Part shown: positions 28,753 through 62,132 of the stretch, one piece after another
Position numbering within the stretch: position 1 is the first letter of the stretch
Layout: each line of letters opens with the position of its first letter
Program-made: the position numbers and the translations under genes
The notes under the pieces: generated by a model
Databases searched by the model: none
Told to the model about the DNA's origin: nothing
The model's input: only the letters and a program-made list of their open reading frames with translations
Source: a virus
Taxonomy: Duplodnaviria; Caudoviricetes
Strand: one strand, 5' to 3'
Length of the DNA stretch: 64,000 nucleotides
IMG/VR virus record: IMGVR_UViG_3300025671_008697

Positions 28753-28758
28753 GGCAAA

Positions 28759-28795: not shown

Positions 28796-28801
28796 TCTTG
28801 T

Positions 28802-30891: not shown

Positions 30892-30892
30892 C

Positions 30893-31057: not shown

Positions 31058-31087
31058 TCGATTAGTTTTAGATTCAAAGGAGAAAAA

Positions 31088-32164: not shown

Positions 32165-32166
32165 GC

Positions 32167-32592
32167 ATGGGTTTCAAGTTAGCCATTGCAATGTTTTTTG
32201 TGCTAGCCAGTCTGGCTGGTGTGGGTTATTGGTATTACAATGACACACAGGAAAGAATTCGCACACTACAACAAAACAATGCTAAACTTGAAACTGCTAT
32301 ACAGATCAACGAAGCCAGCATTAAAACAATGCAGGCTGATGCTGCTAAAAATGCAGCATTGACAAAACAATTACAGACTGATCTACAACAGGCAGAGCGG
32401 TATGGTGATGAGTTACGTAACACATTACAAAAACACAACCTTACCGCTCTGGCACAACGTAAACCTGAATTAATCGAAAAGAGAATGCAAGATGCGACTA
32501 ATAAGTTATGGGCCGATCTTCGCAGTATTACTGACCCTAACAGGGTGCGGGATACTAAGCAAGCCGGAACCAAAGATAGTAACAGTAACTAA
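32167..32592 (+). CDS. i-spanin (Rz)-like protein
   Basis: N-terminal TM followed by a long coiled coil; overlaps the downstream lipoprotein. Confidence 0.65.
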   Translation: MGFKLAIAMFFVLASLAGVGYWYYNDTQERIRTLQQNNAKLETAIQINEASIKTMQADAAKNAALTKQLQTDLQQAERYGDELRNTLQKHNLTALAQRKPELIEKRMQDATNKLWADLRSITDPNRVRDTKQAGTKDSNSN

Positions 32593-32878
32593 CACTGTTA
32601 AAACTACAGTACCTATAGTTGCCAGGCCCAAGGCAGTGAATCTCAACGACGTCAAAATCTACGTTGTCACAAAAGAAAACATAGATCAGTTCGAACAAGA
32701 CTTTGCAAAGAAAAACGGCAGTTTAGTTTATATTGCTATCAGCATCAAAGACTATGAAAACCTAAGTCTAAACTTTGCGGAACTTAGACGCTACATAGAA
32801 CAACAGCAGCAGATTATTGTCTACTACGAAGAAGCAGTAAAGCCTGAAGAAAAGACCAAAGAGCCCGAAAATAAATAA
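32492..32878 (+). CDS. o-spanin (Rz1)-like lipoprotein
   Basis: Lipobox LTGC; 101-nt overlap with the Rz-like gene in a different frame. Confidence 0.65.
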   Translation: MRLISYGPIFAVLLTLTGCGILSKPEPKIVTVTNTVKTTVPIVARPKAVNLNDVKIYVVTKENIDQFEQDFAKKNGSLVYIAISIKDYENLSLNFAELRRYIEQQQQIIVYYEEAVKPEEKTKEPENK

Positions 32879-32897
32879 TCTATAACAAGGAAAAATC

Positions 32898-33176
32898 ATG
32901 TGGGAAATGATACAGAATATGGCAAGTGATAGACTGTGGATTTACACAGGCATCTTTGGATCATTGTTCGGAGCAGCATTTTTGTTCTGGTTTAAAGATA
33001 CAAAGATGGCTATATGGGCAGTAGGCAAGTTCGATAGCACATTAGAATACTTGGCAATCCGGTGGGGTTGGACCTGGTTGCAAAATGATCCTAATGCTTG
33101 GCGTGTTAAATACCCAAAAATTACAGCAAAAATCGACGACTTAGAAACACGCATTCAAAAGTTAGAACAAAAATAA
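32898..33176 (+). CDS. Small membrane protein
   Basis: TM segment WIYTGIFGSLFGAAFLFWF; TAAATA at 32872-32877. Confidence 0.7.
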   Translation: MWEMIQNMASDRLWIYTGIFGSLFGAAFLFWFKDTKMAIWAVGKFDSTLEYLAIRWGWTWLQNDPNAWRVKYPKITAKIDDLETRIQKLEQK

Positions 33177-33178
33177 CT

Positions 33179-33207
33179 TTGACTTAACTGCTATACTGTT
33201 GTATAAT
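33179..33207 (+). promoter_or_regulatory. sigma70-like promoter
   Basis: TTGACT(33179-33184)-17 nt-TATAAT(33202-33207). Confidence 0.7.
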
Positions 33208-33213
33208 CAATAA

Positions 33214-34047
33214 GTGGATTACTATCAAACGTTGGGTGTTAGCAGAACTGCTAATGCCGACGAACTCAAACGTGCCTATAGAAAATTGGCCAGTCAGCAC
33301 CACCCCGACAGAGGCGGGGATACTGCACGATTTCAGGAAATACAGGCTGCTTACGATACATTAAGTGATCCTCAAAAGCGACAACAATACGATAATCCTC
33401 AACCACAACATCAGCATTTTGAATTTAATTTTGGTCCAGGAGGTATGGATGAGATATTCAGCAACTTTTTTCGAGGACATCAAAATCCATTTCAACATGC
33501 TAGGCAACAACCCAGACGCAATAAGGATATAAGAGCAGAAGTCGCTATAGGTTTGCAGGAAACATTAACAGATGCTAAACGTACTTTGAATATAAAAAGT
33601 CAAAATGGCGTAGTGCAAACTGTTGATATAACCATACCTCGAGGAGTCAGTGCTGGTACTACTATTAAGTATCCGGGTCTGGGTGATTATCTTTTTGAAA
33701 ACTTACCCAGGGGTGATCTGTACTTAACAGTTAACATTTATCATAATCCAAATTTCGAAGTTTCAGGTTTAGATTTAGTTACAAATTTGACTATAGACTC
33801 GTTTGATGCTATACTAGGAGTAGATGCACAAATTGTAGGCCTAGATGGCAAAGTTTTTACAGTAAGAACTCCCAAAAGTTGTCAGCACGGAACAAAACTC
33901 AAGATACCAGGAGAAGGTCTGTATAAATTTCAACAGGATATTAAAGGAAACTTGTATGTGAAAATCCACATTAAAGTACCCTTTAATTTGACAGATGAAC
34001 AACTAGAACAAATTAGAACAATTAAACAACAACTAACTGCACGGTAA
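33214..34047 (+). CDS. DnaJ/CbpA-type co-chaperone (J-domain plus C-terminal domain, no Zn finger)
   Basis: [28 protein letters not shown]; GDLYL; GNLYV. Confidence 0.9.
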
Positions 34048-34055
34048 ATATTTTT

Positions 34056-47732: not shown

Positions 47733-48358
47733 TGCGTAGAGATCCAACAGAACTGTTCAAACCTGAAGACAGCGAACTTCGCAGAATTAAGAACAAGTAC
47801 GTTCCTGAGTGGAGCATGTTGGATTATACTGTGCTAGAATGTGCATGGGAGTTTGTAGACGCACAGACTGCGATGCGTTTTGCCTATGAAATGTACAGAC
47901 TGGGCGAAGACATGGATCACAACGCTGTGGTTAAAATAGATCATAACAGTGTTGAAGTACAGATTAGAACCGGCGACGTTGACGGATTAACTATATTAGA
48001 TTTTGAATTTGCACTTAAAGCAACTGCTGTTGCAGAACAGTTAAAGGGCGACAGACTCAGCAAAGTCAAAAACGAACTGGGCGAAGCCTATCAGGGTGGA
48101 CTACGCAAGTGGTTTAAAGAAAAATGGGTCAACATTGCCAAGAAGAAAAAAGGCGGCGGCTACGAAGAATGCGGCAGCAGTGGTGACAAAAAAGGCTATG
48201 CCAAATGCGTACCAGCTGCAAAAGCTGCTGGTATGTCATCTAGTGAAAAGAAAAGTGCAGTACAACGTAAACGTAGCGCACAACGTAAAGCAGGCAGACC
48301 CGGCAAGAAAAGTGGCGCTAAAGGCAAGGCTCCAATAAGGGTAAGTACAAAGAAATGA
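47732..48358 (+). CDS. Two-module protein: pterin-4a-carbinolamine dehydratase-like domain plus basic GLRKWFKEKW module
   Basis: EDMDHNA...GLTILDFEFA (PCD-like); GLRKWFKEKWVNI...CG...KCVP. Confidence 0.6.
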   Translation: MRRDPTELFKPEDSELRRIKNKYVPEWSMLDYTVLECAWEFVDAQTAMRFAYEMYRLGEDMDHNAVVKIDHNSVEVQIRTGDVDGLTILDFEFALKATAVAEQLKGDRLSKVKNELGEAYQGGLRKWFKEKWVNIAKKKKGGGYEECGSSGDKKGYAKCVPAAKAAGMSSSEKKSAVQRKRSAQRKAGRPGKKSGAKGKAPIRVSTKK

Positions 48359-49791
48359 AAATCGTTGAACTAAAATGCTGGCCTGGCTATGAGCGTGTAC
48401 CTGGAACCAAAGCAGGTGCTGTAGGTAGTTGCCGCAAAACGAGTTCTAAAAACGAAGATGCTGCTAACCCAGCCAATCTTGGCCTAACTATATTTGACAT
48501 AGACGACACACTAATGCATACTACTGCAAAGATACGTGTTGTCAAAGACGGCAAAACCGTACGTGAATTAACCAATCAGGAGTTTAATAACTACAAACTA
48601 GAACCAGGCGAACAGTTTGACTTTGGTGAGTTTCGTAGTGCAGAAAAGTTTGCCAAGGAAAGTGAACCCATACGCCCTATGATTGCTAAACTAAAAGCAA
48701 TCATGAAAAACGCAGGAAACAGCAAAGTTATAATGCTGACTGCAAGAGCAGACTTTGATGACAGAGATACTTTCCTAGACACTTTCCGCAAGTACGGTAT
48801 AGACATTGACAACATCCATGTGCACCGCGCAGGCAATATTCCAGGACCAGAAACTCCAGCGCTGAAAAAAGCAGTTTGGGTACGCAGATATTTAGACACT
48901 GGCATGTACAACAGAGTCAGACTGTACGATGATTCAATGAGCAATCTGCGTGCATTCAAAGATTTAAAAGATGAATATCCTGCAGTAGACTTTAAGGCCT
49001 ATTACGTAGGTCCCAGCGGCAGTAGCACTGTTGTAGAAGTAGACCTTAAAGGCAAGTTAGCAACAGGTGCTGTGGCAGGCGCACTGGCTGTGGGTCAGGG
49101 TGGCGCACTTGTTAACAAACTCACAGACCCCGACAGTCCTCGCTATCAGGTTCCTAAAGATGCAGCCACATACCAAATGAAGGAACCACCACGTGAACTG
49201 CCCAAGTCACTGCCTGCTGCACAGCCTAAACAACAGACTGCACCTCAGGTCCGAGCAGAACCAAAGGCAGTTAATTTGACTGGCAGTCCTTACGAAACAC
49301 TGATGCGTAAAGTAGCACAAGCCAGTGGCATACAGGGCACAGAACTGGCAGCGTTTATGGCACAGATGGCGCACGAAAGTATGGACTTTACTCGCATGTA
49401 CGAAAAGGGTATCAAACGTTACTTTAATCGCTATGATCCCAGATACAATCCAGGCACTGCTAAAATATTAGGCAACACTCGTGCAGGCGATGGCTACAAG
49501 TACAGAGGCAGAGGTTTTATACAGTTAACTGGGCGTGACAACTATACCCGTGCAGGCAGAGACCTAGGTATTGACTTAGCGAACAAACCAGACTTAGCAG
49601 CTGATCCTAAAATAGCAGCACAAATTGCAGTATGGTTTTGGAAAAACAGAGTGCAACCAAAGGTAGATGACTTCAGCAACGTAAATGATGTAACACGCAG
49701 TATCAATCCCAACATGCGTGGTCTGAAAGATCGTGCAGAAAACTTCAAACAGTATCAGGTTGCTATGGCAGACACTGGAGCAGATTCATGA
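48355..49791 (+). CDS. Modular protein: CWPGY module + HAD-like phosphatase + GH19 lysozyme
   Basis: CWPGYERVPG..GSC; IFDIDDTL, MLTAR, LYDD; AFMAQMAHES, YRGRGFIQLTGRDNY. Confidence 0.85.
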   Translation: MKIVELKCWPGYERVPGTKAGAVGSCRKTSSKNEDAANPANLGLTIFDIDDTLMHTTAKIRVVKDGKTVRELTNQEFNNYKLEPGEQFDFGEFRSAEKFAKESEPIRPMIAKLKAIMKNAGNSKVIMLTARADFDDRDTFLDTFRKYGIDIDNIHVHRAGNIPGPETPALKKAVWVRRYLDTGMYNRVRLYDDSMSNLRAFKDLKDEYPAVDFKAYYVGPSGSSTVVEVDLKGKLATGAVAGALAVGQGGALVNKLTDPDSPRYQVPKDAATYQMKEPPRELPKSLPAAQPKQQTAPQVRAEPKAVNLTGSPYETLMRKVAQASGIQGTELAAFMAQMAHESMDFTRMYEKGIKRYFNRYDPRYNPGTAKILGNTRAGDGYKYRGRGFIQLTGRDNYTRAGRDLGIDLANKPDLAADPKIAAQIAVWFWKNRVQPKVDDFSNVNDVTRSINPNMRGLKDRAENFKQYQVAMADTGADS

Positions 49792-50267
49792 GATTATTTC
49801 AGTTTGAAGCAGAACTGCCACCAGAAGCAATTGAAAAACTTCAACAGTATAAACAGCAACGTCAGCCAACTTATGCAGAACTTAGACGTAAGGCTCTGCA
49901 GGTTGAAGAGTTAGCAGGCATGGCCAAAAAGATTGAAGACCTGCGTGCCAGAGTAGAACGTGTATACGGTGATTTACCTCCAGGCATGCAGGCAGATTTG
50001 GAACTAGCAGATTTATATCCTGTGCCAGAAACAGATCAGGACTATGTTGATCTGAAACAAAGATTTGTAAAAGACATAGCACTACTACAAAATTATGTAC
50101 AGAGCAAACGCAGTCTCTACAAAAGAGAAAGCGTGAACTACAATGGCGCTTTTTGGTTATCACAGGTACAGGGCAGCGATAGTCCTGTTAGCCCAGTTGG
50201 TGCAGTTCCAAAAGCACAACGCATAAATACTAAAAAGGCGCCAATTAATGTTAAGAAATCTGATTAG
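49788..50267 (+). CDS. Hypothetical protein
   Basis: MRLFQFEAE...; C-terminal SPVSPVG. Confidence 0.65.
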   Translation: MRLFQFEAELPPEAIEKLQQYKQQRQPTYAELRRKALQVEELAGMAKKIEDLRARVERVYGDLPPGMQADLELADLYPVPETDQDYVDLKQRFVKDIALLQNYVQSKRSLYKRESVNYNGAFWLSQVQGSDSPVSPVGAVPKAQRINTKKAPINVKKSD

Positions 50268-50679
50268 ACTGGTAGAAGCAGCAGAGCGTAACTGCCCTGT
50301 GGCAACCTACGACATTGACGTCAACCTTAAAAATCGACAGACAGCAATTGACAGTTATCATTACGGTCCTGCTAATCCAGCAGCGCCAGGAAAATATTGG
50401 AAAGATAGTGCCAAGCAGTGGAAGATAGACGAAAAAACTGCAAAGACAATGCTGTGTGCTAACTGTGGTGCATTTGATGTCAGCGACAGTATGCGTGACT
50501 GCATTGCCAATGGTATTAAGGGTGACGAAAAGGCTGTAGATGCAAACGCCAGTATTAACTTAGCAGACTTAGGATACTGTAACTTCTTGCATTTTAAATG
50601 CGCCGGGGATAGAAGTTGCACTGCTTGGATAGCAAATGGCCCCATAACAGAAAAAGACAAAGGCAAGAAGGCAGACTAG
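50248..50679 (+). CDS. Cys-rich conserved phage protein
   Basis: MLRNLIRLVEA; CANC, GYC..LHFKCAGDRSCTAW; TAAATA at 50224-50229. Confidence 0.7.
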   Translation: MLRNLIRLVEAAERNCPVATYDIDVNLKNRQTAIDSYHYGPANPAAPGKYWKDSAKQWKIDEKTAKTMLCANCGAFDVSDSMRDCIANGIKGDEKAVDANASINLADLGYCNFLHFKCAGDRSCTAWIANGPITEKDKGKKAD

Positions 50680-50680
50680 C

Positions 50681-51115
50681 ATGGAAGATTTAATCAAAGC
50701 AATGAAAATTGCATTTAGCACAGAGTTTAGTTTTTATTTAAAAGCACACAATTTTCATTGGAACGTAGAAGGTCCAGATTTTCAAGAGTATCACAAACTG
50801 TTTGAAACTATTTACGAAGAAGTCTACGAAAGCATTGATCCATTTGCTGAAAACATTCGCAAACTGGGCAGTTACACTCCTGGTAGTTACACACGCCTTA
50901 GTATGCTAACACAGATCGACGACGAAACTGGCGTACCACCAGTAATGGGTATGGTAGAAGAACTGTTAAGTGACAGTGATAAGTCCGTCAAAGTATTCAA
51001 GATGGTTTACGACCTAGCAGAACGTGAAGGTGAACACGGTTTGAGTAACTTCCTTGCTGAACGTATGGATGCACATCGTAAACACAGTTGGATGTTAAGA
51101 GCAAGTCTCAAGTAA
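50681..51115 (+). CDS. dps: Dps/ferritin-like DNA-protecting protein
   Basis: FYLKAHNFHWNVEGPDFQEYHKLFE.IYE...D.FAENIRKLG...HRKHSWML. Confidence 0.9.
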   Translation: MEDLIKAMKIAFSTEFSFYLKAHNFHWNVEGPDFQEYHKLFETIYEEVYESIDPFAENIRKLGSYTPGSYTRLSMLTQIDDETGVPPVMGMVEELLSDSDKSVKVFKMVYDLAEREGEHGLSNFLAERMDAHRKHSWMLRASLK

Positions 51116-51117: not shown

Positions 51118-51699
51118 ATGCAAACAAAAGACTTTTATGAAGCCAGTCCCAGTACACTAGGCGGGAGTTTTACACCTGACTTAGTAACAAGCAAATTATG
51201 GCTAGCACGTAAGGTGCGTGCTTTAATGACTAAAACTCGTGTCGAAAAATACAAAACAGTATATGTACTGGGCAGTTGGTTTGGTAATATGGCTATATTT
51301 TTGCAGCAAAAAGGTGTTGAATTTGATCGAATAGTGTTAGTAGACATTAACAAAGATTGGATGCAAATTAGCAAAGAACTATTAGAACCAATTACAGACA
51401 AACTAGATACCATAATTCAGGACGCAAACAAAATTACCTATTCTGACCAGCAGCCAATATTAGTAATTAATACCAGTTGTAATGAAATGGCAAATGAGGG
51501 TTGGTTAGACCGTATTCCTGCGGGATCAACGGTTGCTCTGCAGGCTAGAAATAATGTACAATCAGTGGACGTAGTAACAGACACCGTAGAAGAATTTAAT
51601 AATCAATTTCCGTTGAGTGATGTGTTTTACTTGGGCGAGCGTAAACTACGAGATCCGGAAGTTAGTTATCAAAGGTTTATGAAAATAGGAATCAAATAA
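51118..51699 (+). CDS. Class I SAM-dependent methyltransferase-like protein
   Basis: [28 protein letters not shown]; likely ATG 51118. Confidence 0.65.
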
Positions 51700-52907
51700 T
51701 GAAAAAACGCAATTACTCACAGGAAACTGTAGACAAACTCAGAGGCAGTGTACACATTGACCATACCCTGGCTAGACTGGGTGCAAATAAACTACGCCAC
51801 TTGTTAGCCACAGAACCATATATTAACACACTAGGTGCTTACAATGGGCAACAGGCAGTACAACATGCCAAGGCAGGACTTAAAGCAATTTACCTGTCAG
51901 GCTGGCAAGTAGCGGCAGCAAATAATACTGCACTGCAAACTTATCCGGATCAAAGTCTATATCCAGTAAACTCAGTGCCCAATGTGGTAAAAGGTATCAA
52001 CAATGCTTTCCGTCGTGCGGATCAAATTGAACACGTAGAAGGCAACGTGACCACAGACTACTTCCTGCCCATTGTAGCAGATGCAGAAGCAGGGTTTGGC
52101 GGTGCACTTAATGTCTATGAACTTATGATGGCCATGATTGAAGCAGGCGCTGCCGGCGTACACTTTGAAGACCAACTAAGTTCAGAAAAGAAATGCGGAC
52201 ATTTAGGTGGCAAAGTACTAATTCCCACAGGACAGGCAATTCGTAATCTTAATGCTGCACGGCTGGCAGCAGACGTAGCAGGTGTTAGCACAGTTATTAT
52301 GGCACGCACAGATGCAGAAGCTGCGACACTGATTACCAGCAATCACGACCCACTAGACAAGGATTTTATTATTGATGAGCGCACTGAAGAAGGTTTTTAC
52401 AAATTTAAAAATGGTATCGATGCTTGTATTAGCAGAGGTCTTGCTTATGCCCCTTACGCTGATCTCTTATGGTTCGAAACTAGCACACCTGACGTGGCAC
52501 AGGCTAAGAAATTTGCCGATGCCATACATGCCGAGTATCCTGACCAGTTGCTTGCTTATAACTGTAGCCCTAGTTTCAATTGGCGTAAGTTCCTAAGCGA
52601 AGACGAATGCGAAACTTTCCAACGTGAAATTGCTGAACTAGGATTCAAGTTTCAGTTTATTACACTGGCAGGATTCCACAGTGTTAACCTTGCTACATTT
52701 GAACTTGCTGAAGCATATAAACAACGTGGGATGGCAGGCTATGCAGAAATGCAACAACGTGAGTTTGCGGCAGTAGACAGAGGCTTTACCACTGTAAAAC
52801 ATCAACGCGAAGTTGGCGTTAGTTATTTTGACGTTATCAGTGAAGCAGTTGGTGCTACCAGTACCGTTGCTAACAAATCTTCAACAGAAGCAGATCAATT
52901 TCATTAA
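51699..52907 (+). CDS. aceA: Isocitrate lyase
   Basis: [27 protein letters not shown] catalytic motif, [21 protein letters not shown]. Confidence 0.95.
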
Positions 52908-52916
52908 GTATTTACA

Positions 52917-54332
52917 ATGACAATAAATTACTCAGAGCGTATACCTAACAATGTTAATTTAAGTGAAGACAGAGCACTACAACGTGCTCTTGAAGGATGG
53001 CAACCAAACTTTTTAAACTGGTGGCAGGACATGGGACCAGAAGGCAGTACCAACTATGACGTATATCTGCGTACTGCTGTCAGTGTAGATGCACAGGGAT
53101 GGGCACAATTTGACCATGTTAAGATGCCAGACTATCGTTGGGGTATTTTCCTAAACCCTGCTAAAGAAGGTCGCAAGATTCATTTTGGTGATCATAAAGG
53201 TGAAGCGGCCTGGGACAGTGTGCCAGGTGAATACCGTGCAAACCTAAGACGTATTATTGTGACACAGGGCGACACAGAACCTGCGTCAGTGGAGCAACAA
53301 CGGCACTTGGGTTTGACTGCTCCCAGTTTGTATGACCTACGTAACTTATTTCAGATCAACGTAGAAGAAGGCCGTCACCTGTGGGCCATGGTATATTTGT
53401 TACACAAATACTTTGGGCGTGATGGTAGAGAAGAAGCAGAAGACTTACTGGCACGTAACAGTGGTAGCGCAGACAATCCACGTATCTTGGAAGCATTTAA
53501 CGAAAAGACTCCAGACTGGCTCAGTTTCTTTATGTTTACTTACTTTACAGACAGGGACGGCAAGTTTCAGTTAAAAGCATTGAGTGAAAGTGCATTTGAT
53601 CCCTTAGCACGTACTACACAATTCATGCTTACAGAAGAAGCACATCATATGTTTGTAGGCGAGAGCGGCGTAGCAAGGATCCTACAACGCACTGCACAAG
53701 TTATGAAAGAACTTGGCACAGATGATCCGCAACGTTTACGTAGTGCTGGTGTAATTGATTTGCCAACAATCCAACGTTACTTAAACTTCCACTTCAGTAA
53801 GACTGTGGACTTATTTGGTGCAGACGAAAGCAGTAATGCTGCTACATTCTACTCAACAGGACTAAAAGGACGTTATGATGAAGAAAAGCACGATGACGAC
53901 CATGTACTAAAAGACAGTGAGTACAGCGTTTTAAGTGCAGACTTAACAGAGCGCAGTGTACCCATGCTGAATGCACTTAATGAAGTGCTACGTGATGACT
54001 ACATCAAAGACAGTGCCAGTGGCGTTGGACGTTGGAATCGTATTTTAAACAAGGCAGGCATCGACTTTGAACTTACAGTTCCACATAAAGCATTTAATCG
54101 TAACATCGGACCACTAGCAGGCTTAACAATTAGTCCCGAAGGGCGTGTTGTATCACAGGAACAATGGCAGCAAAGTCAGAGCCAGTGGTTACCCACACCA
54201 GAAGATCGTGCATTTGTACAAAGTCTAATGGGCCGTGTTACTGAACAAGGACAGTATGCCAACTACATTGCACCACCTTCTGTGGGTATCAACAAACAAC
54301 CAATGGATTTTGATTACGTAAGGTTTAATTAA
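52917..54332 (+). CDS. boxB: Benzoyl-CoA 2,3-epoxidase subunit B (di-iron)
   Basis: IPNNVNLSEDRALQRALEGWQP, KMPDYRWGI, QGDTEPASVEQQ, EEGRH and EEAHH ExxH ligands; TAAGTA 6 nt upstream. Confidence 0.93.
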   Translation: MTINYSERIPNNVNLSEDRALQRALEGWQPNFLNWWQDMGPEGSTNYDVYLRTAVSVDAQGWAQFDHVKMPDYRWGIFLNPAKEGRKIHFGDHKGEAAWDSVPGEYRANLRRIIVTQGDTEPASVEQQRHLGLTAPSLYDLRNLFQINVEEGRHLWAMVYLLHKYFGRDGREEAEDLLARNSGSADNPRILEAFNEKTPDWLSFFMFTYFTDRDGKFQLKALSESAFDPLARTTQFMLTEEAHHMFVGESGVARILQRTAQVMKELGTDDPQRLRSAGVIDLPTIQRYLNFHFSKTVDLFGADESSNAATFYSTGLKGRYDEEKHDDDHVLKDSEYSVLSADLTERSVPMLNALNEVLRDDYIKDSASGVGRWNRILNKAGIDFELTVPHKAFNRNIGPLAGLTISPEGRVVSQEQWQQSQSQWLPTPEDRAFVQSLMGRVTEQGQYANYIAPPSVGINKQPMDFDYVRFN

Positions 54333-54982
54333 TGTTAGAAACAATCTGTGATACAATGAATCATGCATATCAGCGCGGCTGGATTACCAGTCGTGACGGT
54401 AATGTCAGCATTAGGCATCACGACAGAGATCATTTTTACATTACACCCAGTGGAGTACGCAAGCAAACACTACAGCCTGATCAATTTAAAAAAATTGAAA
54501 TACTTAAACAACCAGTAGAAAACAGGCCATTACCTTTTGAATACAATTGGCGTGAATTAGAGTATACTGACATCAGCCGTAACTTACGGCCAAGCGGAGA
54601 AATTCCTTTACACTTTGGTTTGCAGCGTGAAATACACAGCGACGAAGTAAGAGTGGTCATGCACTTTCATCCCACTTACACCGTGGCTGCTATGCATGCC
54701 GGAATTGAACTACAAGATTTGGTCAAAGACTTTCCTGAACTAAGTAGATATACATCGGTTGCTCCTAATGTACCGGATGTGCCGCCGATCAGTCAACAGT
54801 TGGCAGACTATACAATTGATAGACTTGATGTTTGTCCAATAACTGGTTTGGTAAAGTATGATATTATTGGTATTAAAGGACACGGCGTAGTAGCAGTAGA
54901 TACTACGCCCTGGAGATGTTTTGAACACATTGAACGTTTAGAACATATCTGTCAAATAGTTTTAGCAAGTGGACGACATTAA
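54332..54982 (+). CDS. Class II aldolase/adducin-family protein
   Basis: RDGNVS, ITPSG, PSGE, MHFHP, KGHGV. Confidence 0.85.
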   Translation: MLETICDTMNHAYQRGWITSRDGNVSIRHHDRDHFYITPSGVRKQTLQPDQFKKIEILKQPVENRPLPFEYNWRELEYTDISRNLRPSGEIPLHFGLQREIHSDEVRVVMHFHPTYTVAAMHAGIELQDLVKDFPELSRYTSVAPNVPDVPPISQQLADYTIDRLDVCPITGLVKYDIIGIKGHGVVAVDTTPWRCFEHIERLEHICQIVLASGRH

Positions 54983-54985
54983 AGT

Positions 54986-55615
54986 ATGTTAGTCATCTTG
55001 GGTGACAGTTTCTGCTCTGAAAAGGAGGGCTGGCCTTCTATGCTAGCCAATATGCTTAATACAGATTTTGTTTGTCACGGAACACCTGCTGCTAGTTGGT
55101 GGATTACCTATAAAGATTGTCAAAGATTAGAAAATAAGTTGTCAAATGCAAAAATAATTATATTTTGCCACACACATCCTGCTAGAATATTAACTGAAAA
55201 TTTAAATATTCTTCAATGCGATTATAGAGCAAAATCAAAAAATGAAGAGCAAGCCGCCGGTAGTTTATATATGAAATATATTCATAATCACGAAGTTCAT
55301 GATTGGTCGATGTCTGCTTGGTTTAAGGAATTAAATGAACGGTACAAGCAAGCCACAGTTTTGCACCTATTTGCTTTTGACGATTCAATGAGTCTAGGAA
55401 AATATCTCACCAATGGAATTAAAGCAAAGACATCGCTTACTGAATTAAGTTTATTAGAGTTTTCATCAGATGACATCAATTTGCTGTCAGGCGATAGTAG
55501 AGCAAATCATTTTAGCCAATACAATAACAAAATATTAGCTAAACAAATTTATAATGGATTAATCAATGGTATAGATTTTGATTTTGACAAAAGTGAATTT
55601 AATTTCGGAACTTAA
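54986..55615 (+). CDS. SGNH/GDSL hydrolase-like protein
   Basis: LGDSF N-terminus; ANHFS near C-terminus. Confidence 0.6.
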   Translation: MLVILGDSFCSEKEGWPSMLANMLNTDFVCHGTPAASWWITYKDCQRLENKLSNAKIIIFCHTHPARILTENLNILQCDYRAKSKNEEQAAGSLYMKYIHNHEVHDWSMSAWFKELNERYKQATVLHLFAFDDSMSLGKYLTNGIKAKTSLTELSLLEFSSDDINLLSGDSRANHFSQYNNKILAKQIYNGLINGIDFDFDKSEFNFGT

Positions 55616-55626
55616 ATGGAATAAAA

Positions 55627-56775
55627 ATGGCAATTGATAATAAAATTTTAGAAATATTAGGTAGAGAAGAATACAGGCAAGGCAACACCATAGAACTTAT
55701 AGCAAGTGAAAACTTTGCCAGTGAAGTAGTGCGTAATCTCTGTGCTAGTGTGTTTACCAACAAGTATGCAGAAGGTATTCCTGGCAGACGTTTTTATAAT
55801 GGTTGCGAACACGCAGATGAAATTGAACGTCTGGCAATTGAATACGCTACAACACTGTTTGGGTGTCAATTTGCCAATGTTCAACCACATAGCGGTGCTA
55901 ACGCCAACCTTGCAGTATTCAAAGCATTACTTAAACCTGGAGATGTTATCTTAGGTATGGATCTGAGTAATGGTGGACATCTGAGTCATGGAAGTCATGT
56001 TAACCTAAGTGGTGCTTGGTTCAGAGCTGCCAAATATACATTAGGACAAGATGGCCTAATAGACTATATAGAAGTAGATAAATTGGCTCAAGAACTAAAA
56101 CCTAAATTGATCATTGCAGGTGCTAGTAATTATAGCCAAGTTATCGATTGGGCAAGGTTTAGGCAAATTGCCGACAAAGTAGGTGCAAAACTATTATGTG
56201 ACATAGCACACTACAGTGGATTGATTGCCGGCGGACAATACCCCAATCCTTTCCCACATGCTCATATCGCTACTAGCACTACACACAAAACATTACGCGG
56301 TCCAAGAGGTGGAATAATTCTATGGAACGACAACGATTTATCGGCAAAAATTAACAACGCAGTTTTTCCTGGCACACAAGGCGGACCTTTGATGCATATT
56401 ATTGCTGCCAAGGCACAGTGTTTTCACGAGGCATTGCAAAAAGATTTCAGAGAATACAGCCGGCAAGTTATCTTAAATGCAAAAGCAATGGTAGAAGTAT
56501 TCAAAGAAAATGATGTAGATATAGTTAGTAATGGTACTGAATGTCACATGTTTACTTTAGACTTAGGCAAAGAATCTTATAGTGGAAGACAACTTGCAGA
56601 TAGACTAGAGGAAAAAGGAATTACTGTGAATAAAAATGCAGTACCAGGAGATACCAGAAGTTTTGTTGAAACTAGTGGAATCAGAATTGGCACTGCTGCT
56701 GAAACTACTAGAGGACACAACGAAGAATGGTTTAGAGAACTTGCTCAGAATATTGTTAATATTTTGAGAACTTAA
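55627..56775 (+). CDS. glyA: Serine hydroxymethyltransferase
   Basis: LIASEN, KYAEG, NVQPHSGA, GGHLSHG, TTHKTLRGPRGG (PLP Lys), SGIRIGT. Confidence 0.95.
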   Translation: MAIDNKILEILGREEYRQGNTIELIASENFASEVVRNLCASVFTNKYAEGIPGRRFYNGCEHADEIERLAIEYATTLFGCQFANVQPHSGANANLAVFKALLKPGDVILGMDLSNGGHLSHGSHVNLSGAWFRAAKYTLGQDGLIDYIEVDKLAQELKPKLIIAGASNYSQVIDWARFRQIADKVGAKLLCDIAHYSGLIAGGQYPNPFPHAHIATSTTHKTLRGPRGGIILWNDNDLSAKINNAVFPGTQGGPLMHIIAAKAQCFHEALQKDFREYSRQVILNAKAMVEVFKENDVDIVSNGTECHMFTLDLGKESYSGRQLADRLEEKGITVNKNAVPGDTRSFVETSGIRIGTAAETTRGHNEEWFRELAQNIVNILRT

Positions 56776-56856
56776 CACCTTAGGACCGCTAAGTTAAGGT
56801 GTAGGCGGCTGCTGCCTGTGGGAATCGATTCGCTACCGTGTACCATAAAGTGAGCA
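56775..56856 (+). ncRNA. Candidate structured RNA (three stems plus possible pseudoknot), family unassigned
   Basis: ACACCTT/AAGGTGT stem; AGGCGG/CTGCCT stem; GTGG/CCAT stem whose loop TTCGCT can pair with downstream AGTGAG. Confidence 0.5.
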
Positions 56857-56857
56857 C

Positions 56858-56863
56858 TAAATA
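56858..56863 (+). promoter_or_regulatory. T4-late-like TAAATA box upstream of the sugar operon
   Basis: TAAATA; the same hexamer precedes many genes in the window. Confidence 0.55.
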
Positions 56864-56881
56864 TTTTGTCTTTCAATTATT

Positions 56882-57352
56882 ATGATATTAATTAAACACC
56901 AAACACTTAACGAAGTAAAAACCGTCACCAAACCTTGGGGATGTGAACGCTGGATACAGGCCGGAGATGACAATCATACTTACGTGCTTAAAGAAATTGA
57001 ACTAAACACCGGGTTTAGAACCAGTATACAAGTTCATAGGCAAAAAGCAGAAACTAATTTTATCTTAGAAGGTCGTGGAGAACTTTGGTATTATCCAGAA
57101 TGGTTTGACTGCGAGCGCTACGAACAAGGAAAATATACCCAAAGCGAACTTGATTATATTTTAGCAAATTTAGAGTGCATCGAATATGGGCCAGGAAGCA
57201 CAATGACAATAGAACCGGGCACGATACACAGAATGGTTGCTGTTACAGATTTGCGTTTTGTAGAATCCAGCACCTGTCACTTAGACGATGTTATTAGATT
57301 ACAAGATGACAGCAATCGCAGTCACGGTAAAATAGATTCAGAACACCAATAA
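56882..57352 (+). CDS. Cupin (type II phosphomannose isomerase C-terminal-like)
   Basis: KPWG, RTSIQVHRQKAETNFILEG, EPGTIHRM, DDVIRLQDD. Confidence 0.8.
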   Translation: MILIKHQTLNEVKTVTKPWGCERWIQAGDDNHTYVLKEIELNTGFRTSIQVHRQKAETNFILEGRGELWYYPEWFDCERYEQGKYTQSELDYILANLECIEYGPGSTMTIEPGTIHRMVAVTDLRFVESSTCHLDDVIRLQDDSNRSHGKIDSEHQ

Positions 57353-58896
57353 TGCTAACAGTTTTAATTCTCGCTGCAGGCTACGGTAGACGTATGGGAC
57401 ACTTTAGCCGCATGGTCAATAAAGGCCTTATTCCCTACGACAACAAACCTTTAATCAGTCATATCATCGAACGATTTGATCAGGACACAAAATTTGTAAT
57501 TGCCTGTGGGCACATGGGACAGCAAGTCAAAGACTATGTCAGTGCAGTGCATACAGACAAACAGATTATTTACGTAGATATAGACGACTACGCTGAAGGT
57601 TCAACGGGCCCGGCTACTACAATACAAAAATGTAGTCCACATTTGACTGCGCCATTTATGTGGCTTAGTTGCGACACTGTTTTTGATTTTGATTATAAAT
57701 CTAAAATGGATCACAACTGGATTGGTGTATATCCTGTTGATAGTGCCATAGCCAAAGACTACTGTTGGATTCAAAGAGACGGCGACACCATTACAGATAT
57801 CTACAACAAACAACCCAGCACTACCGCAGTCGACGCTTTTATCGGCTTGATGTACTGCAAGGATACTACATACTTAGACAACTTAAAAGCCAAAGGTGCA
57901 CGTGAAGCCTACCAGGGATTTGATGATAATTTAGAATTACATGCACACACAGTGAGAGACTGGAAAGACTTTGGCACATACGATAAGTGGGTTGAACTAA
58001 GTAGAGGACTTAAGGAAGTTAGTTTTCCTAAACCTGATGAAATCTTTTATCAAGACAATAATAAAATTGTCAAGTTTACCACCGATAGTACACTAACAGA
58101 TAAAAAAGCCAACAGAGCACTACTGAATCCCAACTGCATGCCCAAGGGTATACGCAGAAGCGGACAGTTTTTAGTTTATGATTATGTGGAAGGCGACATA
58201 GTTTACAATAAACTTACTCCTGCTTTGTTTGCCCAGTTACTGGACTGGAGTGAACAAAACCTATGGCGCCGTAAATGGTTCCCTGATACAGATCAAATCT
58301 GTAGGGACTTTTATCAAGAAAAAACACTAAACCGGCTAAATCAATTTAGAGTAAAATACAAGGATTGGAGTGATCCTACTAGTGTAAACAACGTTCCCAC
58401 ACTAAGCATAAATGATTACTTAAACAAAATAGATTGGGAATGGTTGTGCAAAGAAAATGAATGGGCATTTATTCACGGTGATTTTCAATTTGAAAACATC
58501 ATAGCACACGATCAAGGGTTTACCTGCATAGACTGGCGTACAGACTTCGGTGGCAGCAGCTACGGAGACTTATACTATGACCTAGCCAAAATGTTGGGTG
58601 GTATTATGCTGAATTATCAAAGTGTCAAGAAAGGTGATTTAGTTTATGAGGAACAGGCAGAACTGGCAACGCTAAATTACTGCGGCCTTGATGATGCATT
58701 AGATTATAGACAACAACTGCGAGCATGGGTAGAACAGCATAATTTAAATTGGGATAAAGTGGAACTACTTGTTCCTATTATCTACCTAAACATGAGCCCT
58801 TTGCATGATGCACCTTTTGACAAATATCTTTTTGCACTAGCACAATTACGTTTTGCTGAATACTTCAATGAATCTAGAACAAGCAATAGCCAATAA
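57352..58896 (+). CDS. Sugar nucleotidyltransferase fused to APH/choline kinase-like domain
   Basis: ILAAGYGRRM..NKGLIP; WLSCD; HGDFQFENI, IDWR, YDLAK. Confidence 0.85.
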   Translation: MLTVLILAAGYGRRMGHFSRMVNKGLIPYDNKPLISHIIERFDQDTKFVIACGHMGQQVKDYVSAVHTDKQIIYVDIDDYAEGSTGPATTIQKCSPHLTAPFMWLSCDTVFDFDYKSKMDHNWIGVYPVDSAIAKDYCWIQRDGDTITDIYNKQPSTTAVDAFIGLMYCKDTTYLDNLKAKGAREAYQGFDDNLELHAHTVRDWKDFGTYDKWVELSRGLKEVSFPKPDEIFYQDNNKIVKFTTDSTLTDKKANRALLNPNCMPKGIRRSGQFLVYDYVEGDIVYNKLTPALFAQLLDWSEQNLWRRKWFPDTDQICRDFYQEKTLNRLNQFRVKYKDWSDPTSVNNVPTLSINDYLNKIDWEWLCKENEWAFIHGDFQFENIIAHDQGFTCIDWRTDFGGSSYGDLYYDLAKMLGGIMLNYQSVKKGDLVYEEQAELATLNYCGLDDALDYRQQLRAWVEQHNLNWDKVELLVPIIYLNMSPLHDAPFDKYLFALAQLRFAEYFNESRTSNSQ

Positions 58897-59614
58897 AAAA
58901 CGTGAAAAACTATTTGTTAGTTTAGCACTTCGACCTGGACGCACTGGTACTAGATTTTACACACGACTATTCCTGCATCATGAAATAGACGCAGAGTATG
59001 TGGCCTGCGAATGTACAGACATTAAGAAAGATATAGAGTTAGCCAAACAACACTGTGCAGGTATTAGTATAACTATGCCATATAAAACACAGGTGTCAGA
59101 ATTTGTAGATTTTTGGCACGGTTCAAAAGGAATTACAAATACTTTACATTTACAGTTAGGTATTGTAACTGCCTACAACTGTGATGAATCTGCACTTAGA
59201 ACCTGTGTTAACTTTCCAAAATCTGACATGAGTATTAATTTATTAGGTATGGGTGCAATGAGCCAAAACTTTAGGAATATTGCACCTAAAGGCAGTATAA
59301 TTAGACAGTTCGACAGAGCAAATTGGATGTATAGAGTACAACCCTGTGACATGTTAGTGAATGCGACCAGTATTGGGATGAATCCGGAAGAGTCGCCTGT
59401 AGCAGACGTACACAATGCACACGCAGTAATAGACGTGGTGCAAGGGCCCACTAGATTAAAAAAGATTGCAAGGGCAGCAGGTGTACCATTGGTTACAGGA
59501 GAACAACTATACATTGAACAGTTCAAGCAGCAATTCAAAGTTTATACAGGAATTGCGCCAGATAACAAAGTTTTAGAGCAAGTGGCAGAAGAAGTATTTG
59601 ATTATGATTACTAG
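58868..59614 (+). CDS. Shikimate dehydrogenase-like (AroE family) oxidoreductase
   Basis: GISITMPYK, NTL, YNCD, VNATSIGM, EQFKQQF; likely ATG 58868. Confidence 0.75.
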   Translation: MNLEQAIANKKREKLFVSLALRPGRTGTRFYTRLFLHHEIDAEYVACECTDIKKDIELAKQHCAGISITMPYKTQVSEFVDFWHGSKGITNTLHLQLGIVTAYNCDESALRTCVNFPKSDMSINLLGMGAMSQNFRNIAPKGSIIRQFDRANWMYRVQPCDMLVNATSIGMNPEESPVADVHNAHAVIDVVQGPTRLKKIARAAGVPLVTGEQLYIEQFKQQFKVYTGIAPDNKVLEQVAEEVFDYDY

Positions 59615-60074
59615 ATTTATTAGTGACGTAGATGGCTGTTTGAATGACGGAGTCATTTATTGGTCAGAACAAGGTAAACCATTCAAAGCATTTGGTAATT
59701 ATGACCACGATGGTGTTAAAATGTTTCGCAAACACAATATTCCCATTACTTTTATTACTGCGGACAAAGCAGGTTGGAATATTATGTACAGTCGCGTAGT
59801 TGAACATATGAAATGCGACTTAGTGTTAGTACCGGAAGCCAGTAGATACGAATTTGTTGAAAATTATGGATTTGATAACATAGCATACATGGGCGATGGA
59901 TTTTATGATGCTCCTATTATAAAGGCCGCACGTTATGGAATAGCGCCAGCACAGGGCAGAATAGAAGCACGGAATGCTGCCCACTATGTAACACCTAGTC
60001 GAGGCGGTGAAGGCGCTTACTTTGATGCCTGTTTATGGTTATTGGATCAGATGGGAATAGACTATGCAATTTAA
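59598..60074 (+). CDS. KdsC-like HAD phosphatase
   Basis: SDVDGCLNDG, YMGDGFYD, GGEGA. Confidence 0.85.
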   Translation: MIMITRFISDVDGCLNDGVIYWSEQGKPFKAFGNYDHDGVKMFRKHNIPITFITADKAGWNIMYSRVVEHMKCDLVLVPEASRYEFVENYGFDNIAYMGDGFYDAPIIKAARYGIAPAQGRIEARNAAHYVTPSRGGEGAYFDACLWLLDQMGIDYAI

Positions 60075-61041
60075 ATTAGGCTTTGGTCCTATGAGTGTGA
60101 TCGTTAACAGGGCACTGGCAGAATACGCTAGTATGAAACAGCGTCCTCTAATGATAATTGCCAGTAGGAATCAAGTAGATGCCGACAGTGGCTATGTAAT
60201 GCAGACACGGGCGCTGGCTGATCAAATGGAGCCATTGCGTAGTGACTATTTAATGCTGTGCAGAGATCATTGTGGACCCTACTTTTTAGACAGTGAACGT
60301 GAACTGTCAATTAAAGACGCAGTAAACGCTACAAAGAAAACAATTCAAGCAGACATAGAAGCAGGATTTGATTTGATTCACATCGATACCAGCAGATGTG
60401 AAGATCCTTATCCGGTAGCAGACGAATTATTCAACTTTTGTTTGGAACTAAACCCCAATATTAAATTTGAATTTGGCACAGAAGAAAATGTTGGAGTAAG
60501 GGCTGGGGTTAAGAAATACAAAGACGATGTTAGATTTGCCAGTCAATACCCAAACATGGAGTTTGTGGTGGCACAGACCGGCAGTTTGACCATGGAGGAT
60601 AGACAGATAGGCAGTTTTGAACCTGGTTTGGTTAAAAAGTTGGTTGCATTTGCTGAACAGAGTAATGTAAAATTAAAAGAGCACAATGCCGATTACTTAA
60701 CTGCCGAACAGATCCAAATGCGTCGAAACGCAGGAGTACACGCTTGTAACATTGCTCCACAGTTAGGTGTTATACAAACACAGGTAACACTGTCATTGGC
60801 TAAAGAACATAATGTTAACACACATGAATTTGAACGTACAGTATTGGAAAGTAATAAATGGCAAAAATGGATGATCGGTGATAACACAGAAACAAAAATA
60901 CTGGTAGCAGGACATTATTGTTTTGGTTCAAACAGTTATGAAAGACTTTTTGAACAAACACAAAAACACTGCGACTTAGAAGCAGAAATCACGTTAGCAA
61001 TTTATAATTGCTTAGACACTTACTATGAGAACTTATTATGA
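60064..61041 (+). CDS. GatZ/KbaZ-like (class II aldolase/epimerase TIM barrel) protein
   Basis: LGFGPMS, IASRNQVD, CRDHCGP, HIDT, EFGTEE, HNADY. Confidence 0.7.
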   Translation: MQFKLGFGPMSVIVNRALAEYASMKQRPLMIIASRNQVDADSGYVMQTRALADQMEPLRSDYLMLCRDHCGPYFLDSERELSIKDAVNATKKTIQADIEAGFDLIHIDTSRCEDPYPVADELFNFCLELNPNIKFEFGTEENVGVRAGVKKYKDDVRFASQYPNMEFVVAQTGSLTMEDRQIGSFEPGLVKKLVAFAEQSNVKLKEHNADYLTAEQIQMRRNAGVHACNIAPQLGVIQTQVTLSLAKEHNVNTHEFERTVLESNKWQKWMIGDNTETKILVAGHYCFGSNSYERLFEQTQKHCDLEAEITLAIYNCLDTYYENLL

Positions 61042-62132
61042 TTGTATGGTTTAATTGCAAAATTAGTGACATTAGGCTTACGCCACAACCTAGATATCAT
61101 TTACGTACAGACGATAGACTAGATGTAGCCAAATATAGTTTAGCCAGTTTCCGCCCGTTAGATGAAGTGACTTCTAAATGGATCTTTAACTTTGAACTGG
61201 CAGATGGTTGTGCTGGTAAAGAAAAGGAATTTGAAGATTGGATCCGAGAAAACTTTCCTGCAGATAAAACAGTTATAAACTGGTATCGGTGCAATCACTA
61301 TGAGCAATGGCAGGAAATGGCAGATTTAGTTAATGCTGAGGACGATGAGTTAATTTTTCCAGCTGGGAACGAAGATCATATCTTTATGGATACTGATATC
61401 GAACTGTTCAAAGAAGGATTAGAACTTGTTAAAAATGATTCGGACCCAAATGCAGTTTTTTTTACAAGTCATTATCCAGAACTTGCAAGATGTAGTTTTT
61501 ATTTTAACCCAGAAGGCATAACTGAAAATAAACATTTTACATGGTACGTTTTAGGTAGCAATGATGCACTGCGTGTTATGAAAAAAGGCCTTTTTAATGA
61601 ATACGTACAAAAAATTAAGAATAATAAAAACATTTTTTACAGGACTGAAGATTGGAATCAACTCAGTTTGCCTGTTTGTAAAATATATTGTCCAACCAAA
61701 GAACAATTTAGGCACTATGATGGATACGCTCATGTTCGTATAGGTGCAGATATAGCTCCACCATTGGAAATTCCTGCAGGATTTTTTGATAAATCTATGA
61801 CAATTAAATACGGTTTTGATCAGCGTGAAGAAGGCGCAGTAAACATTAACCCACAAATGGAAAGTTTCTTTGCAGAAGATGGCGCCGGCACAGACTATAA
61901 ATTTAGTTTAGAGGATATTCCGTTATTTTGGAAAGAACACATTAAAGAGATTCAAATTAATCCAGACTCTGATTCAGAACAACTTATAGAAGCAAGAGAT
62001 GCTCAATTACTTAAAATGAGTAGATGTGAAGCACATTGGGACTTTATGGGGATTGTTTTTGATAACAATAATTATCCACCAGCAGAAAGAGTAAACTGTT
62101 GGACCAAATCAATTGATTTCACAGACGAATAA
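61038..62132 (+). CDS. Hypothetical protein, possible glycosyltransferase
   Basis: GNEDHIFMD and RHYDGY; last gene of the sugar operon. Confidence 0.55.
   Translation: MIVWFNCKISDIRLTPQPRYHLRTDDRLDVAKYSLASFRPLDEVTSKWIFNFELADGCAGKEKEFEDWIRENFPADKTVINWYRCNHYEQWQEMADLVNAEDDELIFPAGNEDHIFMDTDIELFKEGLELVKNDSDPNAVFFTSHYPELARCSFYFNPEGITENKHFTWYVLGSNDALRVMKKGLFNEYVQKIKNNKNIFYRTEDWNQLSLPVCKIYCPTKEQFRHYDGYAHVRIGADIAPPLEIPAGFFDKSMTIKYGFDQREEGAVNINPQMESFFAEDGAGTDYKFSLEDIPLFWKEHIKEIQINPDSDSEQLIEARDAQLLKMSRCEAHWDFMGIVFDNNNYPPAERVNCWTKSIDFTDE

Follow-up and report, generated by a model that had tools for sequence, protein, structure and literature searches.

A conserved six-gene operon with predicted sugar-nucleotide enzymes in the genome of a large phage

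Six overlapping genes and their predicted products

The subject of this report is a group of six genes which probably encodes the synthesis of an activated sugar and which lies in a stretch of phage DNA of 64,000 nucleotides (Duplodnaviria; Caudoviricetes; IMG/VR record IMGVR_UViG_3300025671_008697), called the window in the following. Positions 56882-62132 of the window are filled by six open reading frames (ORFs) on the plus strand, A to F, whose junctions all overlap, namely A and B by 1 nt (TAATG), B and C by 29 nt, C and D as well as D and E by 11 nt, and E and F by 4 nt (ATGA). Two of the starts were re-set by homology, that of gene C to the ATG at 58868 (MNLEQAI...) instead of the TTG at 58853 and that of gene D to the ATG at 59604 (MITRFISDVDG) instead of the TTG at 59598. 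A preliminary description of this DNA had listed a cupin isomerase, a nucleotidyltransferase-kinase fusion, a shikimate-dehydrogenase-like enzyme, a KdsC-like phosphatase, a GatZ/KbaZ-like TIM barrel and a possible glycosyltransferase (GT), all translationally coupled. The overlapping arrangement on one strand and the assignments with Pfam and NCBIfam agree with this list, and the last gene product is recognized as a GT-A protein by its predicted fold.

Gene A (56882..57352) codes for a 156-aa metal cupin with the hallmarks of type II phosphomannose isomerases (PMI), and we predict that it is an aldose-ketose isomerase acting on a sugar phosphate. Its matches to the Pfam families PF07883 (Cupin_2) and PF01050 (MannoseP_isomer) fall slightly under the cut-offs, the latter as a borderline miss with 23.1 bits against 23.6, and a profile search with A against the PDB sequences returned nothing informative. 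With a true PF01050 cupin of the marine virus AG-345-E15 (E 1e-29) gene A has the motifs KPWG and S-x-Q-x-H-x-x-K-x-E in common as well as a distal His and a C-terminal E..DD..R-L motif; in the same alignment A carries a helical insertion of about 25 residues. The residues of the type II PMI signature are invariant throughout the A family. The predicted model of A (pLDDT 82.9) finds the CapF cupin as its top fold match (Z 13.5), and the other matches include a Thermococcus PMI (Z 12.8, rmsd 2.4 Å over 109 residues), D-lyxose isomerases and cupin-type phosphoglucose isomerases. Some close relatives among the loci compared by us (loci and contigs are given with our own L and G numbers) carry between the cupin gene A and gene B an extra ORF of 250-278 aa without Pfam match (L082:7639-8475 and L092:1311-2063).

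Gene B (57352..58896, 514 aa) is a fusion of an N-terminal sugar-1-phosphate nucleotidyltransferase with a C-terminal kinase of the APH/choline-kinase fold, as judged from Pfam matches and motifs. The N-terminal domain matches PF12804 (NTP_transf_3) with 45.6 bits against a cut-off of 27, and the C-terminal domain matches PF01636 (APH) with 25.9 bits against 23.2. The NCBIfam models nearest to the nucleotidyltransferase domain are GlmU, AglF, MurU and RfbF, and among the PDB sequences the B profile finds the sugar-1-phosphate nucleotidyltransferases RfbF, MurU (4Y7T), HddC (6JQ8) and GMPP. The loop G-x-G-x-R-[LM] is present in this domain, with the motif AAGxGRRMG, and LILAAGYGRRMGP is invariant. 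In the kinase domain the motifs HGDxxxxN and IDWR...GD, with the metal-binding Asp, are invariant across clades; a profile search with this half against the PDB sequences gave no informative solved relative.

Gene D (59604..60074) encodes a 156-aa HAD phosphatase similar to KdsC, which is predicted to take the distal phosphate off a sugar. The NCBIfam models for KdsC, YrbI and KDN-9-P phosphatase give 59-66 bits with D, all under their cut-offs; the match to TIGR01670 extends over the whole length and reaches 63.3 bits against a cut-off of 106.95. The nucleophile motif DxDG is present as DVDGCLNDG (FISDVDGCLNDG).

Gene E (60064..61041) encodes a 325-aa TIM barrel of the class II aldolase type, a shortened member of the GatZ/KbaZ family predicted to be a ketose-phosphate C4 epimerase or aldolase. 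The Pfam family PF08013 (GatZ_KbaZ-like) is matched by residues 13-120 only (44.6 bits, cut-off 26.7), and a full-length GatZ-like protein of Listeria (422 aa) is 34% identical over residues 5-287, that is over 283 residues or 87% of E. GatZ and KbaZ have been shown to epimerise fructose-6-P to tagatose-6-P in vivo, and for GatZ it has been predicted that Asp87 is the base, that His88, Glu171 and His257 are metal ligands and that Cys20, Glu44 and Lys279 are family markers (PMC11907403). Gene E is homologous in sequence to this family and keeps the Asp-His dyad and the predicted Glu and His ligands as D68, H69, E140 and H207, which are invariant in the phage, Listeria and E. coli rows of the alignment. 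In contrast, the family markers Cys20, Glu44 and Lys279 are replaced by G8, I32 and N229, the same Gly, Ile and Asn pocket substitutions being found also in the Listeria and marine-virus homologues, and E is about 100 residues shorter than the family with its approximately 420 aa. The setting differs as well, since E lies in an anabolic sugar-nucleotide operon, whereas GatZ and KbaZ are encoded in catabolic operons for galactitol or GalNAc. In one of the matching records, OR846727.1 ('Listeria phage LM 4-11-1', UNVERIFIED_ORG; L093), the stretch matching E resembles a bacterial sugar operon of the phosphotransferase system (PTS) with a PRD/EIIA regulator, EIIC, a full-length GatZ-like protein and a HAD phosphatase. 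Because this stretch does not resemble phage DNA, the record may include host sequence.

Gene F (61038..62132) encodes a 364-aa protein of the GT-A fold which, going by its predicted structure, is a probable glycosyltransferase using a nucleoside diphosphate sugar (NDP-sugar). No Pfam, NCBIfam or PHROG match and no relatives among the PDB sequences were found for F. The predicted model (pLDDT 75.5, pTM 0.78) has the fold of GT-A proteins and nucleotide-diphospho-sugar transferases. Its fold matches (VIA) are led by the GT2 hyaluronan synthase 8SNC and Mimivirus R699 with a Z of 11.4, then come KfiA, GnT-I, TarP and SpsA, and nucleotidyltransferases are interleaved among these matches at a Z of about 10. 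Among the predicted viral structures of BFVD mostly GT-A glycosyltransferases are matched. An invariant GNEDH follows a beta-strand at the place where the DxD motif is expected, and the GxGxR loop is absent.

Gene C (58868..59614) encodes a 248-aa dehydrogenase of the AroE superfamily with a shortened Rossmann domain, and is assigned by PF08501 (Shikimate_dh_N, 28 bits), by its structural relatives and by its residues. All NCBIfam shikimate dehydrogenase models score far under their cut-offs (the best one, NF009202, with 92.7 against 306; TIGR00507 with 62.4 bits against 200.2). The motifs are found as first quoted: the Lys of SITMPYK and the Asp of YNCD are kept, and HSxSP is replaced by SLALRPG within VSLALRPGRTG. 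In the comparison with E. coli AroE and YdiB the equivalents of K65 (K73 in the window protein), N86, D102 and Q244 are retained, and in all phage C clades the catalytic Lys, the NT motif, the Asp of N-x-D, the Gln and the G-x-G loop are invariant. The residues Ser14, Ser16 and Tyr215, which bind the shikimate carboxylate, are missing from every phage C homologue; the HSxSP loop has become [RK]-P-G-x-T-G or P-G-N-x-G-C and the two-residue segment with Tyr215 is deleted. The phage C proteins are 201-251 aa long with a trimmed Rossmann domain, the distant clade described below having 201-217 aa. No aro gene occurs among the annotated genes of the window and the annotated recurrent neighbour clusters, and the constant neighbours of C are B, D and E. 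Since the catalytic and hydroxyl-binding residues are kept, Ser14, Ser16 and Tyr215 are lost and the curated models score low, we conclude on the strength of these residues that C is a competent polyol or ketone dehydrogenase, probably NAD(P)-dependent, and not a shikimate dehydrogenase, in line with the preliminary description, which had doubted that it is an ordinary one.

The best solved relative of C is HI0607/SdhL (1NPY, E 2e-34), to which the family profile gives 121.9 bits compared with 83 bits for the next AroE; 5-ketofructose reductase (7COK) is also among the solved relatives from the AroE superfamily. SdhL and C both replace HSxSP by a loop of the type S-L-x-x-[RK]-P and keep the catalytic Lys and Asp. 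They differ in that C is shorter, sits in a sugar-nucleotide operon and belongs to a phage clade of its own: in a tree for which E. coli AroE and YdiB together with 14 sampled cellular homologues, but no SdhL sequence, served as comparison set, all 36 phage C proteins fall into a single clade (support 100/99). We know of no physiological substrate of SdhL. The C family has 46 metagenomic proteins, and its profile led to 12 IMG/VR loci.

Occurrence of the module in phages and bacteria

Twelve IMG/VR loci repeat the order A, B, C, D, E, F, DsbA, small ORF, PolB, which is also that of the window, where a DsbA-like gene and then a family B DNA polymerase (PolB) lie downstream of the operon. A scan of viral contigs in IMG/VR with the B profile yielded 68 further loci for a census; in metagenomes at least 844 B homologues were found. 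Gene B is present in 66/68 of the viral loci, E in 58/68, A in at least 53/68 with in addition 10 in which it is fused in-frame to B, D in 49/68, F in 35/68 and a C-like gene in 25/68. Because the gene order is repeated in dozens of independent viral contigs, the block is conserved far beyond chance, and the linkage of these genes that had been supposed from a single sequence is borne out in both sets of relatives. The core of the module consists of A, B, E and a HAD phosphatase, usually together with F, and the AroE-like gene is an accessory.

The commonest arrangement in phages is A-B-D-E-F without C. The arrangement A-B-C-D-E is found in the clade of the window and in L121, L145 and L147. 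A distant clade, whose B is about 30% identical, has a cupin-nucleotidyltransferase-kinase fusion, C, E, a HAD protein of 120 aa and sometimes F. The in-frame fusion of A and B forms a protein of 633-640 aa in 10 loci (in the range L151-L163, e.g., L151:7629-9545) and ties A functionally to B. The distant clade and the marine virus AG-345-E15 have a small unrelated HAD protein in place of D, and this filling of the phosphatase slot either by the KdsC-like D or by an unrelated HAD protein suggests that the phosphatase step is intrinsic to the pathway. Gene C, in contrast, is not the member that defines the pathway: since neither the commonest phage arrangement nor the bacterial clusters described below contain it, C is an old but dispensable member of the module and an optional redox tailoring enzyme.

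Genes for glycan tailoring recur beside the module and encode SDR epimerases/dehydratases, a sugar C-methyltransferase, a DegT aminotransferase, a split transketolase, a carbamoyltransferase, radical-SAM enzymes and glycosyltransferases of the families GT2, GT17 and GT34. The carbamoyltransferase (NodU/TobZ-type) comes after E in L121 and L145 (L145:14053-15522) and two ORFs further on in L147; its family (cluster 42) is present in L121, L140, L147 and L150. This hints that the sugar is O-carbamoylated in the phages having this gene. Downstream of the module, L083, L090, L091 and L092 contain variable insertions of about 0.6-1.1 kb between the small ORF and PolB.

On its upstream side the operon is parted from a serine hydroxymethyltransferase (SHMT) gene by an intergenic spacer of 106 nt on the plus strand (56776..56881) with an imperfect inverted repeat inside. 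The upstream genes from isocitrate lyase through SHMT have homologues in 0/12 of the syntenic loci, and an SHMT homologue is found in 0/68 of the further viral loci. We therefore place the start of the operon at 56882, because the genes on the SHMT side are not conserved with the module. Scans for promoters and terminators gave background level only.

A megablast search with the operon against the GenBank phages gave no match, and tblastn with B and E gave matches only in the marine virus AG-345-E15 and in Listeria contigs, in which an ordinary PTS-linked GatZ is encoded. Thus no cultured phage with the module was found by these searches.

A search for the gene set in bacterial polysaccharide loci, which the preliminary description had suggested, was successful to a small extent. 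A full-length B homologue (E about 1e-63) occurs in 2/401 sampled Bacteroidota genomes and in 0/401 Verrucomicrobiota genomes. In both Bacteroidota clusters the genes follow each other as D (42% identical), E (33%), an ORF of 274 aa, A (35%) and B (29%), and both (2/2 genomes) are without C and without F. GT1 genes adjoin the Bacteroidota cluster, and the Bacteroidota locus and the phage clusters share a C-methyltransferase-like gene and a gene of 377 aa (50% identity). We regard the bacterial contig as chromosomal because the 241-kb contig G347:C46 encodes pyruvate:ferredoxin oxidoreductase and a Wza-like exporter; probes for housekeeping families had no match on the bacterial contigs. The presence of a bacterial version of the module in Bacteroidota suggests that the sugar belongs to a polysaccharide of the cell surface which the phages copy or modify.

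The 274-aa ORF lies between E and A (L168:8441-9265, G219:C18) and has a 35%-identical phage homologue at L150:9909-10745. It has no relative among the PDB sequences and the protein atlas gave GT2-like leads only; possibly it is the bacterial counterpart of F.

The C profile found only ordinary AroE-like genes in the bacterial genomes (25-31% identity), and of 80 bacterial loci with the nearest cellular AroE-like genes none (0/80) carries A, B, D, E or F.

A possible route to a nucleotide-activated sugar and its rivals

In the NDP-heptose pathway the isomerase GmhA, the kinase HldE or HddA, the phosphatase GmhB and the nucleotidyltransferase HldE or HddC act together. The operon resembles this pathway in the succession of steps it could provide, namely conversion of a ketose phosphate into an aldose phosphate, anomeric phosphorylation, distal dephosphorylation and nucleotidyl transfer, and in having the kinase fused to the nucleotidyltransferase, in HldE there and in B here. 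The notion of a sugar-nucleotide operon with heptose-like logic (isomerase, kinase, phosphatase and nucleotidyltransferase) and a probable glycosyltransferase is supported. The families themselves differ: a PMI-type cupin takes the place of the SIS-fold GmhA, an APH-fold kinase that of the PfkB/GHMP kinases and a KdsC-type HAD protein that of the GmhB-type HAD protein, and the operon adds a GatZ-like enzyme upstream in the route and an AroE-like dehydrogenase. Pfam and NCBIfam gave no match of the SIS, PfkB/GHMP or GmhB type with A, B and D. An exception is the nucleotidyltransferase step, where a change of family is not clear, because this domain of B has weak matches to HddC models (NF049965, 20.2 bits against a cut-off of 300) and structures.

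The gene set and its conservation, the catalytic residues that are kept, the fusion of A with B and the displacement of the phosphatase are directly observed; from these we infer the substrates, the order of the steps, the nucleotide and the acceptor. The operon probably encodes a self-contained de novo route from a central ketose phosphate to an NDP-sugar of a rare kind, which is then transferred. In a first step the metal-dependent enzyme E would make a ketose phosphate or epimerise one at C4 by a retro-aldol/aldol reaction, for example fructose-6-P to tagatose-6-P, and in the second step the PMI-like cupin A would convert the ketose phosphate into an aldose phosphate. The kinase half of B would then phosphorylate the anomeric position and D would strip the distal phosphate, in this or the reverse order, with the net effect of relocating the phosphate to the anomeric carbon. 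As fifth step the N-terminal half of B would form the NDP-sugar from the sugar-1-phosphate and an NTP. In some lineages, among them this phage, C would in addition catalyze a probably NADP(H)-dependent oxidation or reduction of a secondary alcohol or ketone, its substrate presumably being a sugar and probably a sugar phosphate; as C is present only in some lineages, the phages with C would make a different sugar from those without C. In the last step F would move the sugar to an acceptor, either a polysaccharide of the host envelope or a glycan on a virion protein. We favor these two acceptors over DNA because the contexts of the module are rich in glycan genes.

A number of points weigh against this proposal. 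The substrates of all the enzymes are predicted ones. For A the Pfam matches are sub-threshold and the best structural match, the CapF cupin, is an NDP-keto-sugar epimerase and not an isomerase. The anomeric specificity of the B kinase is assumed by analogy, because the kinase half is without an informative solved relative. In E all three pocket positions that mark the GatZ family are changed and about 100 residues are missing, and its reaction could be an aldol synthesis instead of an epimerisation. The fold of F fits a glycosyltransferase and a nucleotidyltransferase alike, F is missing in several close relatives, and in L097 and L128 no recognizable phosphatase adjoins the module.

In a more far-reaching form, which we put forward tentatively as a possibility that falls short of being probable, the operon would be a hitherto unrecognized way of making a rare NDP-sugar de novo, such as one with more than six carbons or a hexose of talo or galacto configuration. 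In the phages with C the SdhL-type enzyme would act on a sugar phosphate, and the product of the operon would serve to decorate the virions of jumbo phages or to remodel the surface of the host. Families other than those known from the heptose and octose routes would catalyze most steps. Were this true, the SdhL-type branch of the shikimate dehydrogenase superfamily, which has long been an orphan, would gain its first physiological role. The specific sequence fructose-6-P, tagatose-6-P, talose-6-P, NDP-talose is chemically consistent; as a guess at the actual product it is doubtful.

Gene clusters for sugar production and glycosyl transfer are known from jumbo phages and have been proposed to remodel the host surface polysaccharide (Iyer et al. 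2021, PMC7824862). Like the module they comprise cupin isomerases, sugar kinases, nucleotidyltransferases, HAD phosphatases, SDR enzymes and several GT families, whereas their kinases are of the PfkB type and their nucleotidyltransferases belong to the HIGH superfamily, and the words 'shikimate' and 'aldolase' are absent from the text (PMC7824862). As a general type, phage clusters of sugar-nucleotide and GT genes are known, and we found no description of the combination of enzymes A to F. The glycan pathways of phages and giant viruses are a growing field, and they decide on receptor masking, superinfection exclusion and virion properties. The module is abundant in environmental jumbo phages and has no cultured or characterized representative, a single distant match being present among the GenBank phages. 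With five or six soluble enzymes it is a compact set that could reveal a new activated sugar, an anabolic role for the GatZ family and a substrate for SdhL-like enzymes.

The main rival of the proposed route starts from E as a true aldolase. A precedent is the GDP-octose pathway of lincomycin, in which the transaldolase LmbR, the isomerase LmbN, the kinase LmbP, the phosphatase LmbK and the guanylyltransferase LmbO are followed by tailoring with LmbL/M/Z/S and by the glycosyltransferase LmbT (PMC4351081). The operon has the same inventory, with an enzyme for C-C bonds feeding an isomerase, a kinase, a phosphatase, a nucleotidyltransferase, a dehydrogenase and a glycosyltransferase (E, A, B, D, C and F); it differs in its occurrence, as the Lmb genes form an actinomycete antibiotic cluster and the module is found in phages and in Bacteroidota polysaccharide regions. 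To our knowledge the Lmb enzymes, whose sequences were not compared with the operon, share no homology with its enzymes except for the nucleotidyltransferase superfamily. In this alternative E, in the role of LmbR, would condense dihydroxyacetone (phosphate) with a small aldehyde or an aldose phosphate, C would reduce a keto group of the resulting heptulose, octulose or 6-deoxy/5-keto-hexulose phosphate, and A, the B kinase, D and the B nucleotidyltransferase would lead on to an NDP-heptose, NDP-octose or NDP-deoxyhexose. The membership of E in the class II aldolase superfamily, with the metal site kept and the GatZ-specific pocket residues not, speaks for it, as do the models nearest to D, KdsC and KDN-9-P phosphatase, whose substrates are phosphates of sugars with 8 and 9 carbons, the presence of 5-ketofructose reductase (7COK) in the AroE superfamily and the fact that the Lmb route has exactly such a sequence of functions (PMC4351081). 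However, E is closest in sequence to GatZ and KbaZ, whose demonstrated activity is C4 epimerisation, the operon has no second aldolase subunit of the GatY type, and the absence of C from most modules means that a keto reduction is not obligatory. On balance we consider chain building by E rather unlikely.

Far less probable is a route to an alditol phosphate, in which C would reduce a ketose phosphate and the NTP_transf_3 domain of B would make a CDP-alditol, similar to CDP-ribitol or CDP-glucitol, for a polymer of the teichoic acid kind. It is true that the B nucleotidyltransferase matches PF12804, the family of the MobA/IspD/TarI type, and that C, being devoid of the residues for the shikimate carboxylate, has a P-G-x-x-G loop and a conserved Lys/Arg which could bind a phosphate. 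However, most modules are without C and still have A, B, D, E and F, the best NCBIfam matches of the nucleotidyltransferase are sugar-1-phosphate enzymes, and no role would be left for the kinase, for the phosphatase and for the PMI-like isomerase.

Slightly less probable again, and in our opinion improbable, is a hypermodification of the phage DNA, with the NDP-sugar as donor for the bases and F as a DNA glycosyltransferase. The early-gene position of the operon directly upstream of DsbA and PolB and the SHMT gene 106 nt upstream are in favor of it. Against this, SHMT and the other upstream genes are not conserved beside the module, no thymidylate-synthase-like hydroxymethylase is found among the annotated ORFs of the window, and several close relatives keep A-E without F. 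Moreover, most relatives have the module in large glycan clusters with multiple GTs and with methyl-, carbamoyl- and aminotransferases, and the bacterial module lies in a polysaccharide region. Of the three targets initially considered, virion, DNA and host surface, simple glycosylation of DNA is disfavored by the glycan-rich neighborhoods, and virion and host surface are both left as candidates.

The remaining candidates can be dismissed briefly: a cyclitol (valienol-type) product, which had been suggested on account of C, lacks a sugar-phosphate cyclase and the remaining enzymes are sugar-phosphate enzymes; an ulosonate (Kdo/Kdn) route, also suggested earlier, is unlikely since no PEP-dependent condensing synthase is found and a kinase of the anomeric type is present; and methionine salvage (APH-type MtnK, cupin ARD, HAD protein and MtnB with the class II aldolase fold) is misfitted by the nucleotidyltransferase domain and the GatZ-like gene, the upstream Aldolase_II gene being not conserved with the module.

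Genomic surroundings of the operon

The operon lies in the genome of a large phage. The closest cultured relatives of its PolB are those of the jumbo phages Phosso and PA5oct with about 50-52% identity, and other genes of the window encode a clamp-loader ATPase, DnaJ, ClpB, a ferritin, isocitrate lyase and a TctA transporter.

Directly upstream, at 51699-56775, there is a second tightly packed metabolic cassette, which is without homologues beside the module in related phages. It encodes isocitrate lyase (402 aa), a PaaA/PaaC-like ferritin-fold protein (471 aa), a protein of the class II aldolase/adducin family (216 aa), a 209-aa protein and the full-length SHMT. Unusual auxiliary genes elsewhere in the window (within 21528-36350 and 47732-51115) are those of a TctA tricarboxylate-transporter subunit (23218-24660), a substrate-binding lipoprotein of the Bmp/PnrA type (31088-32164), DnaJ (33214-34047), ClpB (34056-36350), a pterin-4a-carbinolamine dehydratase fusion (47732-48358) and a ferritin-like protein (50681-51115). 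The ORF at 38654-41005 encodes a further nucleotidyltransferase of the region, a 783-aa protein which has a cytidylyltransferase-like (HIGH) domain at its N terminus and also contains DUF5661. Finally, a protein of 1309 aa which may be a fiber or adhesin is encoded at 9618-13547 and contains Ig-like domains (He_PIG) as well as FG-GAP repeats; if glycosylation of the virion is real, this is the type of protein that might bear the glycan.

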